DNA of 64,000 nt from Gemmatimonadota bacterium (GCA_029262195.1 JAJCZX010000024.1:1323-65322), one strand, 5' to 3'. Counted from the first letter of the stretch, positions 16,876 to 20,561 are shown. The notes: a model not told the origin generated them from the letters alone. Numbers and translations are program-made.

Positions 16876-18051
16876 ATGATTGTTCTTGTTGACTCTGATC
16901 CAGATCTCAATCGACCGACCGTGCGCTCCCACCTTCGCCAGTTCGGTTCGACCCTCGCTCGCAGGGGACAGAACGTAGGATTTGTGGCCTGGCACCAGCT
17001 CGATGTGCTACCGGAACGTGTTTCGATTCGGGGTCCCGTCGTTGGTTTCGACGGAGGTGCAATGGAAAGGACTGCCCACCCGCCTCGGGCGCTACTCATT
17101 CATCCCACGAGCGGGGGCCGCAATCGAGCTTTCACAGATTCGGAGCGACGCGCCCTGGGGCGCTTGCGTGCATTAGGTCTAGTACGCCAGCGTGAACGCC
17201 CGACGAGGTTGGCTTGCCTGGCTCGTATTCTGGCGGCGGCTGCACGGTGCGGTATCGTAGTTAATGCTCCCGGGTTGTTGGGACGGTGGGGTCGAAAGGA
17301 TGGCTTGGAAATGGCGCTACGAGAAGCTGTCCGCGAAGGCGCCCCACGCGTACCACGCCCTGAGACCTACGTGGTGCCTGGAGCACAGGTTTGGGTCGCA
17401 GTTTCGTCTTTTCACCGGAGGGGCAAAACCTGTCTGGTGAAACCGGCGAACGGAACGCGGGGAGAACGAATTTGCGTTCTCTCTCCCGGCCAAATGATGC
17501 CCGGAACGAAAGCGGGAACCTGGATCGTTCAGGAGCTATTGGAGCGCCCTCTTCTAGTCGACGGACATAAAGCTGATTTGCGGGCTTTCCTGTGCGTGGA
17601 CCTAACACGCGGATTGGATGTTAGGCTTTTGCCTCCGGTTTTGGTTCGGGTCGCTGGCTACCCCTATGAGAAGGGCAGTGGTCCTGCCGAGATAACGAAT
17701 ACGGCGTTTCGCGCGCGTCACGGGTTTTCGCCGGCAACGTCCCTTTTGAATGATGCAATCGCGGATCCACGTCTCAAAGCAGAAATTCTCTCCAGTTTGG
17801 AATCGTTGGTGGACAATCTATCGGAATCGCTGCAGCTTTTTTCAGCGTCGGTTGGCCGCTCACCGCAGGTCCTGGTCTGGGGTATTGACGTGTTTGTAGG
17901 TCGGTCGGACGGAATGGTTTCAACTCAAATTCTCGAAATCAACGTATATCCGCGCCTCTTCAGAGGCGTCCTATCGGCGGATGAAGCTGTCAGTTCGATG
18001 TGGCTCGACGAAGTTTTGCCCCGTATCATCAACGTGGGATACGCTCAATGA
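16876..18051 (+). CDS. ATP-grasp enzyme, tubulin-tyrosine-ligase (TTL)-like (391 aa)
   Basis: The motifs appear in TTL/ATP-grasp order. They are CLVKPANGTRGERICVL (phosphate-binding strand-loop), WIVQELLERPLLVDGHKADLRAFLCV (compare the TTL pattern YVVQKYIxxPLLIxGRKFDLRxYVLV), ITNTAF, and VWGIDVFVGRSDGMVSTQILEINVYP (compare FGFDxxxDxxxxxWLxEVNxxP). The stop overlaps the next start (ATGA). Confidence 0.7.
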   Translation: MIVLVDSDPDLNRPTVRSHLRQFGSTLARRGQNVGFVAWHQLDVLPERVSIRGPVVGFDGGAMERTAHPPRALLIHPTSGGRNRAFTDSERRALGRLRALGLVRQRERPTRLACLARILAAAARCGIVVNAPGLLGRWGRKDGLEMALREAVREGAPRVPRPETYVVPGAQVWVAVSSFHRRGKTCLVKPANGTRGERICVLSPGQMMPGTKAGTWIVQELLERPLLVDGHKADLRAFLCVDLTRGLDVRLLPPVLVRVAGYPYEKGSGPAEITNTAFRARHGFSPATSLLNDAIADPRLKAEILSSLESLVDNLSESLQLFSASVGRSPQVLVWGIDVFVGRSDGMVSTQILEINVYPRLFRGVLSADEAVSSMWLDEVLPRIINVGYAQ

Positions 18052-20561
18052 AGATTACTCTGCTGACGACCCGTCGTTTCGACCCTACCGCTATCTGGTT
18101 GGCCGAGCAATTCCGCATTGCGGGAATGGACCTAACTCCATCTAGGGTTCTCACGCCGAAAACAGATCTGGCCCTTTTCTGGAGTTATGATCGTACGCGA
18201 GCACGACGACAGATCCGGAATTTTTGCGAGGCCCGCGGGATTCCAATTCTAAATTCGCGTACGCTCGGCGTGTTGTCGGTTGCCAGGCGGTTGCAACGTG
18301 CCGGGATTCCGGTAGTGCCAACCATGGAGGTTGCGGATAGGTCGGCAGCCCGCGAGGTGTTGGGGGGTTGTCCCCCTCCGGTCGAATTGACTACCGCCTT
18401 CGGAGGTCGAGTTCGCGAGGTCGTGGACGCGGCGGACCTCGAAAATAAATGGGGTCCCCGACACGCCATTGTTCGCGCCGTTGACAAAGATATGGTGCGG
18501 CTCGCCGTTGTGGGCGGCGAAGTGCTAGGAGAAGCGACTCCTGCATGGACTCAGCTTGCACGCGCAGTCAGCGATGCACTAAATGTTGATTTTTGTGTGG
18601 TCCGTTTGTGCACTTTTCACGGGCAACCAACGGTTGTTTCCGTCAGCCACAGGCGTCCGGGTATTGGGTCGTTCCCCGGAGCTGGCGAAGCCATGATCCG
18701 CCTTGCAGAAAAGCAAAAAGCGAGTGAGAAGCCAGCTTGTGTTCGGGGCTTTCGAAAACCGATGGTGTCAATTGTTACCGGTATTCCGGAAGACGAGACA
18801 GTAGAGGCCATTCGTAGGGCATGTGTGAATCAGGGTCTTGAGCCTAGAGTCACGACCGAGGTTCAAGCCGACTCCGACGCGGCGTTCTTTTGGGGGCTTC
18901 ATTGGCGCCATCACCGGGACGTATGGCGTCACGCGGAAACCATCGGAATACCGACATTGGGTGGACCGTGGCGCTCGATTTCGGACCAACTGGGCGCACT
19001 ACGCCGTGCACGCCTGTTCGTCCCTGATTTTCGACCGGCCAGAGGCGCAGACAGTGCCGCTCGATGGGCTCGCAGAATTGGATATCCGGTTATGGTTGGC
19101 GAGGACGGTGACCCTGATCGACACAGCTGCCGCCTTGTGTTCCAGGAAAGCGAGCTGCGCATGGCGTGCGATCAGATTGAACCTCCGGTCCTGTTGCAGG
19201 GTCTCCGTTGGTCCTCCTCAACCTTGCTTCGGGCCTGGGTGGTAGGGGACTCCGTGTTAGCGGTGAGATCGCAACCACTCGCCGATCTTAGTCAGGGCTA
19301 CAGGGGCGTCGGATTGTGGAGCAGGGAGGAGGCGTCTCAAACAATAAAGGTTGCCGCCATCGCTGCCAGAAACGCTCTCGGTACAGGACCCTGTATTGTC
19401 GAGTTGCTCGATGAACCCGATGGGGTGACGGTGCTGCGTGTTCTTCATCGACGTGTTGCGTTGGAGGAGTTGCCGGACGAGGCGTCGGAAAAAATTCCAG
19501 TGATCATGGCATCTGAGATTGCGAACTTGTTGAAGGAACCGGATCGACCGTTGGCTTTTGCCCCTCCGTTGAAGGTGGTAATGGCCCGCCCTTACCGGCG
19601 ACAAAACCGAATGCGGATATGGTGTATTTCTGCTGTGTATCATGAACTGGCCCGCCGCGGACATGAGGTCGTCCATCTTTTTGGACGTTACGACGCTCAA
19701 AAAATCGACCAGGCTGATCTCGTATTACAGGATCCTTTGGCTACAATGGGCTGGCGCCGTAAGCCCAATCCGCTCAACCGGCGGCTCTTGAGCGAAACCA
19801 AGGTGCCGTGTCATCTTCTTCGCCATCACAGCGGTCGGGGCAGGGGCAAACTAGGGTCTCTTAGTTTGGCGCGCCGATTGGATCTGCCCCACCCGCGGGT
19901 TTACCGACCGCGTTCTGTACAGCAAGGCCATCTTCCGGTCATCATAAAACCGCTGCATGGCTCGCTGGGGCGGGGCATCTTTCGAGTGGATGATCTGGAT
20001 CAACTTCGTCGCCTGAATCCTCGGGGGAAGCTAGTCCACGAATTTATCGACTCGGACACCGGATATGCCGTGAGTGCTCGCGTCGTAACCGTACGAGACG
20101 AGGTTGTAGCCGCTGGGATCTTTTACAGTCGCGGCGCTGTTATTTCTAATCTTTCCCGCGGCGGTCGCGCGGTAGCTCTAACCGGACCCGGCGCCTCCGC
20201 GCGCCTGGGTACCGAGGCAGCTATGTTGCTGCGGCGGATCGGGATTGACCCCACGGCACCACGTGTGGTGCCCGCCAAATTGGTTGCCATGGCATCGAAG
20301 GTTGGTGCTCATCTTGCCACTCGTGGGGTTCAGATGGTGGGGCAGGACTATGTGGTAAACCGTGACGGACAGTGGTTCTTCCTCGAAGCGAACAGGTCTT
20401 TTGGGATCGCGTTGTTCAACGTTACCGATGGCGACGGATATCCAAGCACCAGGAAAGGATACCGTCTGGCCGGAACTGTCCTGGCGCAGGGATTCGAGAA
20501 AACTGTCGGGCGGGCTCCGGCAAAAACGACACGCCACTTCCGGCGGAGAGGAGGGACATGA
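18048..20561 (+). CDS. Protein of three tandem ATP-grasp-like modules (837 aa); the C-terminal module is RimK-like
   Basis: The start is ATG at 18048 (MKITLLTTRRF), which overlaps the upstream stop; the track ORF begins 48 nt earlier in the same frame. Module 3 reads LPVIIKPLHGSLGRGIFRVDD...LVHEFID...YAVSARVVTVRDEVVAAGIFYSRGAVISNLSRGGRAVAL...GQDYVVNRDGQWFFLEANRSFG. This matches the RimK pattern (DIRxxVVGDxVVAAxxRxxxxGxFRSNLHRGGxA). Modules 1 and 2 repeat the same layout (pre-ATP-grasp Rossmann-like start MKITLL / MVSIVTG / LKVVMAR, IPxL, ...VVGGEVLG / WVVGDSVLAV) but lack clear phosphate-binding motifs. Confidence 0.7.
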   Translation: MKITLLTTRRFDPTAIWLAEQFRIAGMDLTPSRVLTPKTDLALFWSYDRTRARRQIRNFCEARGIPILNSRTLGVLSVARRLQRAGIPVVPTMEVADRSAAREVLGGCPPPVELTTAFGGRVREVVDAADLENKWGPRHAIVRAVDKDMVRLAVVGGEVLGEATPAWTQLARAVSDALNVDFCVVRLCTFHGQPTVVSVSHRRPGIGSFPGAGEAMIRLAEKQKASEKPACVRGFRKPMVSIVTGIPEDETVEAIRRACVNQGLEPRVTTEVQADSDAAFFWGLHWRHHRDVWRHAETIGIPTLGGPWRSISDQLGALRRARLFVPDFRPARGADSAARWARRIGYPVMVGEDGDPDRHSCRLVFQESELRMACDQIEPPVLLQGLRWSSSTLLRAWVVGDSVLAVRSQPLADLSQGYRGVGLWSREEASQTIKVAAIAARNALGTGPCIVELLDEPDGVTVLRVLHRRVALEELPDEASEKIPVIMASEIANLLKEPDRPLAFAPPLKVVMARPYRRQNRMRIWCISAVYHELARRGHEVVHLFGRYDAQKIDQADLVLQDPLATMGWRRKPNPLNRRLLSETKVPCHLLRHHSGRGRGKLGSLSLARRLDLPHPRVYRPRSVQQGHLPVIIKPLHGSLGRGIFRVDDLDQLRRLNPRGKLVHEFIDSDTGYAVSARVVTVRDEVVAAGIFYSRGAVISNLSRGGRAVALTGPGASARLGTEAAMLLRRIGIDPTAPRVVPAKLVAMASKVGAHLATRGVQMVGQDYVVNRDGQWFFLEANRSFGIALFNVTDGDGYPSTRKGYRLAGTVLAQGFEKTVGRAPAKTTRHFRRRGGT

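Follow-up and report, generated by a model that had tools for sequence, protein, structure and literature searches.

What would a TTL-like ligase and a protein built of three ATP-grasp modules do side by side in a bacterium? The question is raised by a 64,000-nucleotide stretch of a Gemmatimonadota bacterium genome (GCA_029262195.1, JAJCZX010000024.1:1323-65322; hereafter the window), in which the gene for a TTL-like ATP-grasp ligase (open reading frame 1, ORF1) overlaps the gene for a triple ATP-grasp fusion (ORF2), with genes for proteins containing glutamate- and proline-rich tracts following directly. Family profiles, structure prediction, and comparison with related loci lead us to propose, tentatively, a conserved two-enzyme protein-modification cassette that is co-translated with its candidate substrate proteins. 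The first of the two enzymes is encoded as follows.

16876..18051, plus strand: TTL-like ATP-grasp ligase (ORF1), 391 amino acids, net charge +14, Pfam TTL 54.3 bits

TTL (PF03133) is the sole Pfam family matched by ORF1, at 54.3 bits against a cutoff of 20.1, and the whole match spans profile positions 45-150 of 292. The closest solved relatives in a PDB sequence search are TTLL7 (1.5e-9) and TTLL6 (2e-4), followed by TTLL11 and TTL, and no Ddl, GshB, or other small-molecule ATP-grasp ligase is among the PDB matches. An earlier reading made from the DNA sequence alone (the sequence-only reading) had called ORF1 TTL-like, which the Pfam and PDB results bear out, with no placement in a small-molecule ATP-grasp family; both ORFs and all of the motif strings it quoted are present (LVKPANGTRGERI, IVQELLERPLLVDGHKADLRAFLCV, EITNTAF, WGIDVFV...LEINVYP, IIKPLHGSLGRGI, SNLSRGGRAVAL, and FFLEANRSFG). 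Residues K189, D234, R236, T274, D338, E354, and N356 are invariant among the orthologues that lie beside related ATP-grasp genes, as judged over 6-7 orthologues. K189 is the ATP-binding lysine and D338, E354, and N356 are the magnesium ligands, and the K.DLR motif is likewise invariant. ORF1 is thus placed by sequence in the TTL family of ATP-grasp enzymes, with catalysis predicted.

Characterised members of the TTL family modify proteins, and TTLLs act on the Glu-rich tails of tubulin. ORF1 resembles the eukaryotic TTL/TTLL enzymes TTLL7 and TTLL6 in the ATP-binding core, including VKPANG..G and G.K.DLR, and has the ATP/Mg residues Lys, Asp, Glu, and Asn in common with them. Candidate substrate proteins with Glu-rich disordered tracts are encoded near ORF1. 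Unlike its eukaryotic counterparts, ORF1 is bacterial and short (391 amino acids), lacks a microtubule-binding domain, occurs where there is no tubulin, and is partnered by a RimK-like multi-module enzyme instead of other TTLLs. That partner is encoded by the next gene.

18048..20561, plus strand: triple ATP-grasp fusion (ORF2), 837 amino acids, net charge +39, ATGA overlap with the TTL gene
18048..18752, plus strand: module 1 (M1, residues 1-235), degenerate ATP-grasp, homologous to the intact RimK-like M1 of relatives
18762..19538, plus strand: module 2 (M2, residues 239-497), degenerate ATP-grasp, with homology to M1
19572..20513, plus strand: module 3 (M3, residues 509-822), RimK-like ATP-grasp with motifs intact, Pfam RimK

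Homology among the three modules is clear only with family profiles. Self-BLAST finds no internal repeat in the 837-residue protein, and among Smith-Waterman module pairs compared with shuffles, M1-M2 alone stands out, at a marginal z of 4.3. Profile-profile comparison with hhalign, using the family alignment, relates M1 to M2 at 100% probability (E 4.7e-40) and M1 to M3 at 96.9% probability (E 2.5e-10); the direct M2-M3 comparison is weak. An AlphaFold2 model built on the family alignment (predicted local distance difference test score, pLDDT, 84; predicted template modelling score, pTM, 0.78) is made up of three beta-alpha modules in colinear arrangement (residues 1-235, 239-497, and 509-822), each with the same succession of strands and helices. 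The profile E values and the modelled layout together uphold the view that ORF2 consists of three homologous ATP-grasp modules.

Foldseek comparison of the model with the PDB returns LysX, ArgX, and RimK as the best single-domain folds, at template modelling (TM) scores of 0.65-0.73 on the target; by profile and sequence, M3 and the M1 of relatives are closest to RimK. Carbamoyl phosphate synthetase (CPS) aligns across more than 1000 columns, and PsnB is also among the fold matches. Like ORF2, the CPS large subunit is a single chain of internally duplicated ATP-grasp units. CPS has two active units with different chemistry, whereas ORF2 has three units, some of them degenerate, and the two proteins show no sequence affinity beyond the fold (TM 0.13-0.24, root-mean-square deviation 18-28 A).

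The catalytic state of each module was read from a MAFFT alignment of all modules with E. coli RimK, a module being counted as competent when the Lys, the Gly-rich loop, the hinge Q/E, the R/S-N..GG motif, the Asp, and Glu-x-Asn were all present.

ATP-binding Lys: RimK, K; window M1, Thr; M2, Gly; M3, K
Hinge: RimK, QE; window M1, RA; M2, QG; M3, HE
Substrate loop: RimK, RSNLHRGG; window M1, deleted (~25 amino acids); M2, not conserved; M3, ISNLSRGG
Mg ligand Asp: RimK, D; window M1, Arg; M2, Glu; M3, D
Mg ligands Glu-x-Asn: RimK, ExN; window M1, SxS; M2, RxL; M3, ExN

Only M3 of the window protein has the full set; M1 and M2 fail at every position apart from the hinge Gln of M2. Ten M3 residues (K634, S639, G641, G643, S700, N701, G705, D767, E780, and N782) are invariant in the family. 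M3 is also the only window module that reaches the Pfam threshold (RimK PF08443, 31.2 bits against 21), and its family profile is closest to E. coli RimK (6.4e-8). The per-module Pfam scan gives no match for M1 and, for M2, no RimK and a sub-threshold Ins134_P3_kin score (21.6 against 23). M3 and RimK have the K, SNLxxGG, D, and ExN motifs in common; M3 differs in a conserved insertion of ~30 residues after the GG motif and in having its own N-terminal subdomain, and ORF2 as a whole differs from RimK and LysX/ArgX in fusing three modules, one or two of them inactive. The NCBIfam model TIGR00768 (rimK_fam) scores ORF2 at 43.1 bits, below its cutoff of 143.4, which makes ORF2 RimK-like and not a RimK orthologue. 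RimK is an L-Glu ligase that extends the C-terminal Glu tail of ribosomal protein S6. The S6 gene (rpsF) was not noticed near the cassette in any locus, and the neighbourhood lacks LysW and lysine-pathway genes.

Relatives of ORF2 change the picture for M1. In the proteins designated P0004, P0006, and P0007, M1 reaches 66.8-72 bits with Pfam RimK, matches E. coli RimK at 6e-16, and retains the Lys, the Asp, and Glu/Asp-x-Asn; the triple protein of locus L015 scores 102 bits with RimK in two stretches, its M1 being a good RimK-like domain. M1 is dead in P0005 too, within an intact gene, and in the triple protein of L003. None of the ten aligned members (0/10) has kept the Mg ligands in M2, which is degenerate throughout. 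M2 of P0014 scores 27.7 bits with Pfam RimK. Two-module forms consisting of M2 and M3 also occur (P0013, P0014, P0019, and a 577-residue protein of L015). The sequence-only reading, in which two modules are degenerate and M3 alone is intact, thus holds residue by residue for the window protein and fails for M1 across the family. Because M1 is an intact RimK-like domain in several relatives, its decay in the window protein is, on this alignment, lineage-specific and not family-wide, and the ancestor would therefore have had two active sites around a dead M2. The ancestral design was probably active-dead-active, and the single-active-site, dead-dead-active state of the window protein and P0005 is probably derived. 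It is plausible that the pseudo-enzyme modules act as substrate holders, since M1 and M3 are strongly basic.

The pairing of the two genes recurs across the family. The TTL gene adjoins a multi-module ATP-grasp gene in every locus with an assessable neighbour (the window, the P0004 contig, L002, L003/4/7, L005/6, L008, L009, L010-12, L015, and L016); the contigs of P0011 and P0014 end within the neighbouring gene. A 4-nucleotide overlap of the two genes occurs in four loci (the window, the P0004 contig, L003/4, and L005/6). TTL domains are amplified at L003 (1085-4524; also in L004 and L007), where a 373-residue TTL precedes a 773-residue tandem two-TTL protein and then the triple gene. The genes that follow the enzymes in the window encode two candidate substrates, which the sequence-only reading had not recognised, and one further protein.

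20558..22972, plus strand: N-terminal domain (NTD)-Glu-Pro (EP)-protein-arginine deiminase (PAD) protein, 804 amino acids, candidate substrate, matched by the NTD hidden Markov model (HMM) and PAD, ATGA overlap with the triple gene
22969..23628, plus strand: weak HEAT-repeat protein, 219 amino acids, HEAT_2 17 bits (below cutoff), ATGA overlap with the PAD gene
23628..25628, plus strand: NTD-EP protein, 666 amino acids, candidate substrate, NTD HMM match, E+P-rich tract

Four-nucleotide ATGA overlaps join the TTL gene to the triple gene, the triple gene to the PAD gene, and the PAD gene to the 219-residue gene, and the last is ATGA-linked to the 666-residue gene as well if the ATG at 23625 is used. 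Because these overlaps chain the genes, the run from the TTL gene to the 666-residue gene looks like one translationally coupled unit. A promoter and terminator scan found no more sites than in shuffled sequence. Few proteins of the window are as basic as the TTL protein (+14) and the triple protein (+39), and the candidate substrates are acidic (pI 5.1-5.4).

The 804-residue protein comprises the NTD (residues ~1-185), a Glu-Pro tract (residues 208-250, nucleotides 21179-21307; ...EEGEPEPEPQAEPEAEAEPEAEPEPEPEGETEP...), PAD_M, and PAD. Pfam PAD (PF03068) scores 263.6 against 25 over profile positions 3-394 of 395, and PAD_M (PF08527) scores 48 against 24.8. The 666-residue protein has an NTD (residues ~1-190; 41% identity to that of the PAD protein, E 4e-21), a Glu-Pro tract (residues 216-243, nucleotides 24273-24356), and a 425-residue C-terminal domain (24351-25628) with no Pfam, NCBIfam, or PDB sequence match. 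The deiminase encoded at 20558-22972 is of the type found in eukaryotes and cyanobacteria, set behind a novel NTD and a linker rich in Glu and Pro. Homologues of PAD have been described in bacteria (PMC8826395), and no description of the NTD-EP-PAD fusion or of its operon context was seen in the literature.

Across the family, a Glu-Pro-rich repeat gene adjoins the cassette in six of seven informative loci. When ORFs were scanned for 30-residue windows with at least nine Glu and at least nine Pro, the only ones with such a tract in each locus were cassette-adjacent (2/496 ORFs in the window). The loci concerned are the window (the PAD and 666-residue proteins), L002, L005/6, L009, L010, and L015. 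The repeat takes the form of (VEPG)~17 followed by (EP)~20 in L002, of (GEP)n cut by the contig end in L005/6, and of (GEP)~55 followed by (EP)14 in L015, where Pfam Collagen scores 111 bits. The Glu-Pro protein of L010 has 1960 residues (11589-17471, minus strand) and is encoded between two TTL genes; besides the NTD and an EP tract, it has a large central part and, in tandem, about six repeats of ~90 residues. The L010 gene is flanked on one side by a TTL gene and a two-module ATP-grasp gene and on the other by a second, divergent TTL gene.

The NTD, of ~180 residues, precedes the repeat twice in the window and in L010 and L015, is encoded by a free-standing gene in L002, and in L013 is encoded directly after the triple gene. 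It has no Pfam match. Across five proteins, its invariant residues include two adjacent Gln, three Arg, and a Gly-Glu pair. The domains that follow the repeat vary, comprising PAD, the 425-residue domain, a large multi-repeat body, and a domain common to L002, L009, and L015.

Repeats of the (GEP)n or (EP)n kind also occur in bacterial collagen-like proteins and trypanosome EP procyclins, and weak Trypan_PARP matches are found in the candidate substrates. A prolyl-hydroxylase-like 2-oxoglutarate (2OG) oxygenase gene adjoins the candidate substrates in L002 and L015, which recalls collagen-like proteins. Unlike collagen-like proteins and procyclins, the candidate substrates have a conserved, cytoplasmic-looking NTD fused to enzymes such as PAD, and no LPXTG anchor or signal peptide was noticed in them.

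L002 and L015 carry an orthologous HEAT-like gene, a prolyl-hydroxylase-type 2OG oxygenase gene, and an SDR gene. These form a syntenic block (L015 11354-16705 and L002 8218-12398) in the order collagen-like/EP-repeat, HEAT-like, 2OG-Fe(II) oxygenase, and SDR. The window 219-residue protein has no detectable similarity to the HEAT-like proteins of L002 and L015; it was considered as a conserved component of the cassette and rejected on that ground. L008 and L015 have QueC-like and glycerophosphotransferase genes in common. On its opposite strand, L015 encodes an HTTM domain protein. The HTTM domain occurs in vitamin-K-dependent gamma-glutamyl carboxylase.

The analysis shows the family assignments, module homology, pattern of catalytic-residue loss, and gene linkage; from family membership and gene linkage we infer what is modified, which amino acid is attached, and how the two enzymes share the work. 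Our favoured, still tentative, proposal is that both ligases attach amino acids, of which Glu is the probable one, to the neighbouring acidic Glu-Pro tracts. It is put forward because characterised enzymes of both clades ligate amino acids onto carboxylates of proteins within acidic regions, both enzymes are basic here, and the conserved neighbour carries a polyanionic tract. The proposal is consistent with the retention of all ATP/Mg residues in the TTL protein and in M3, with the affinity of M3 and of the relatives' M1 to RimK, and with the solved relatives of the TTL protein, which are polyglutamylases of Glu-rich tails. The TTL-like enzyme would use ATP to activate the gamma-carboxylates of the repeat glutamates and attach an amino acid, most likely Glu, as a branch. 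The RimK-like M3 could then lengthen the chain, because the free alpha-carboxylate of a branch Glu is chemically equivalent to that of the C-terminal Glu of S6 on which RimK acts. The dead M1 and M2 of the window protein may serve as a scaffold or binding surface, in which the basic M1 could hold the polyanionic tract, and in relatives, M1 would provide a second active site.

A further gene lies just downstream of the coupled unit.

25719..27047, plus strand: MurL-like protein, 442 amino acids, net charge +17, 90 nucleotides after the 666-residue gene, Pfam MurL_N and MurL_epimerase_C

The NCBIfam MurL equivalog model NF041275 scores this protein at 226 bits against a cutoff of 700, marking it as a distant member. 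No MurD2 gene lies near it, and BLAST does not connect it with the QueC-like proteins of L008 and L015. The gene is possibly linked to the system and fits terminal-Glu chemistry, because MurL is an ATP-dependent epimerase of terminal L-Glu (PMC8788868). Since it is placed after Glu-ligase-like genes, its product may act on a terminal glutamate other than that of the peptidoglycan precursor.

Several observations weigh against the glutamylation proposal. Gene adjacency does not identify the site of modification. M2 of the window protein is slightly acidic (net -5). The cassette of L003/L007, with its three TTL domains, has no EP protein in the 10 kb available, and the relatives all come from metagenomes or metagenome-assembled genomes (MAGs), many on short contigs. 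Structure prediction for the NTD reached a pLDDT of 51 and did not predict its fold. The MurL-like gene is found in the window only, follows a 90-nucleotide gap, and scores far below the MurL cutoff. It may also be the NTD to which the cassette is really linked, and the EP tract would then be no more than a flexible linker. An unlikely alternative takes up this last point: the ligases would modify the NTD proteins elsewhere, for example at an NTD residue or at the C-terminus, and the Glu-Pro repeat would be a spacer to variable cargo. The conservation of the NTD across five proteins with invariant residues would suit this account, as would the variation of the repeat unit (EP, GEP, or VEPG) and the L013 NTD gene, which directly follows the triple gene with no EP tract before the contig end. 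Against it, the EP protein of L002, and apparently that of L005/6, has no NTD although its gene comes immediately after the triple gene. The solved relatives of both enzymes, moreover, have acidic, Glu-rich termini or tails as their targets, and the candidate proteins showed no acidic tail conserved at the C-terminus. We judge it similarly improbable that the enzymes make or decorate a non-protein product, such as poly-alpha-glutamate, another peptide, or a glycopolymer or teichoic-acid-like polymer. Free poly-alpha-Glu is made by RimK in vitro, as cited in PMC10375531, amino-acid decoration of surface polymers has been predicted for ATP-grasp enzymes of polysaccharide loci (PMC13419641), and transferases lie near the cassette (two GT2 domains in the window; Glyphos_transf in L008 and L015). 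Conservation from locus to locus is nevertheless seen for the EP and NTD proteins and not for the transferases, and it is the EP-protein genes, not the transferases, that show tight ATGA coupling. Protein modification is, moreover, the activity of characterised TTL family members, which argues against a non-protein product.

Two other explanations receive very little weight. M3 might be a graspetide-type macrocyclase that cross-links Glu/Asp to Ser, Thr, or Lys in neighbouring proteins, as its best PDB match in a single-sequence search is the MvdD-like ligase 9bou (E 0.014), PsnB is among the fold matches, and NCBIfam TIGR04187 (ATP-grasp peptide maturase) gives a weak match. This is made highly improbable by the family profile, for which RimK (6.4e-8) is a far better match than 9bou (0.036), by the TIGR04187 score of 15.8 bits against a cutoff of 350, and by the EP, GEP, and VEPG repeats, which lack Ser, Thr, and Lys nucleophiles; no short precursor-peptide gene is evident near the cassette. 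An equally improbable reading is that the triple gene is decaying and no longer functional in this genome. In its favour, the protein has two dead modules out of three, M1 having lost all five of five catalytic positions and ~25 residues, and a relative in L009 (a nanopore assembly) shows pseudogene-like fragmentation. Yet ORF2 is intact over 837 residues, its M3 keeps every family-invariant residue, AlphaFold2 is confident for all three modules, operon coupling is preserved, and P0005 has acquired a dead M1 independently in an intact gene.

The remaining genes of the window include, upstream and on the same strand, three that encode acidic proteins (pI 4.7) at 1532-5143 (1203 amino acids), 5431-5895 (154 amino acids), and 5909-13042 (2377 amino acids), for which neither Pfam nor NCBIfam gives a match and the other loci contain no relatives. 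An 883-residue protein with N- and C-terminal GT2 glycosyltransferase domains is encoded at 13042-15693, its gene sharing base 13042 with the 2377-residue gene, and is followed by a 166-residue putative lipoprotein (…IAAWSC) and a 145-residue Cys-containing protein. No family or solved relative was found for the 1203-, 2377-, 145-, and 166-residue proteins. Elsewhere in the window are three duplicated MacB_PCD/FtsX permeases of ~890 residues (32699-35374, 35967-38639, and 58125-60821), followed by an OEP/HlyD/AcrB efflux set. Permeases of this kind are typical of Acidobacteria, and their presence would fit an Acidobacteriota-like host.

The pairing of a TTL gene with a triple RimK-like gene is very rare and so far found mainly in Acidobacteria. 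An exhaustive HMMER search of 1.84 billion representative proteins with the triple-protein family yielded 46 proteins with E<=1e-3, among them 17 with E<=1e-30, of which about five are full-length relatives at 35-42% identity. The named family genomes are Acidobacteria MAGs and one 6-kb contig binned as Mycobacterium. Absence from the word-indexed protein search or from the pattern-based genome scan does not amount to absence of the family: the former returned the query alone or one NTD protein and missed P0004-P0007, and the scan of genome contigs with the triple-protein alignment found none, though L015 is there and was reached through the TTL alignment. The one addition from a metagenome scan was L007, almost identical to L003 over the stretch that both cover.

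Each part of this system is of a known kind: a ligase of the TTL family, a RimK-like ligase, and, as in CPS, ATP-grasp units duplicated within one chain. What appears new is their combination: a bacterial TTL gene coupled to an ATP-grasp gene, a triple fusion with lineage-specific module death, adjacent Glu-Pro or collagen-like proteins, and a common NTD. A full-text literature search did not find the combination of TTL, RimK-like, and EP-repeat genes, though the amidoligase survey of Iyer et al. 2009 may mention it.

TTL and TTLL enzymes are known for writing the tubulin code of eukaryotes, and RimK is the classic case of a bacterial enzyme that glutamylates proteins. A more speculative and rather unlikely extension of the glutamylation proposal is that the cassette is a prokaryotic equivalent of the tubulin polyglutamylation code, in which the TTL enzyme would start gamma-linked branches on Glu-Pro or collagen-like repeats and the RimK-like modules would extend them through alpha linkages, the targets being NTD-tagged proteins that include arginine deiminase cargo. 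Further tailoring by the MurL-like terminal-Glu epimerase or by prolyl-hydroxylase-like oxygenases is possible. If the glutamylation proposal is true, the cassette would make the polyglutamylation of proteins, or a related ligation of amino acids to side chains, open to simple tests outside eukaryotes and would hint at the origin of TTL-type chemistry. The triple fusion offers a natural series for the change from ATP-grasp enzyme to pseudo-enzyme, with M1 intact or dead depending on the lineage and M2 always dead. Together, the eukaryote-type PAD and the collagen-like repeats with prolyl-hydroxylase-like genes point to an unusually rich protein modification set in Acidobacteria.

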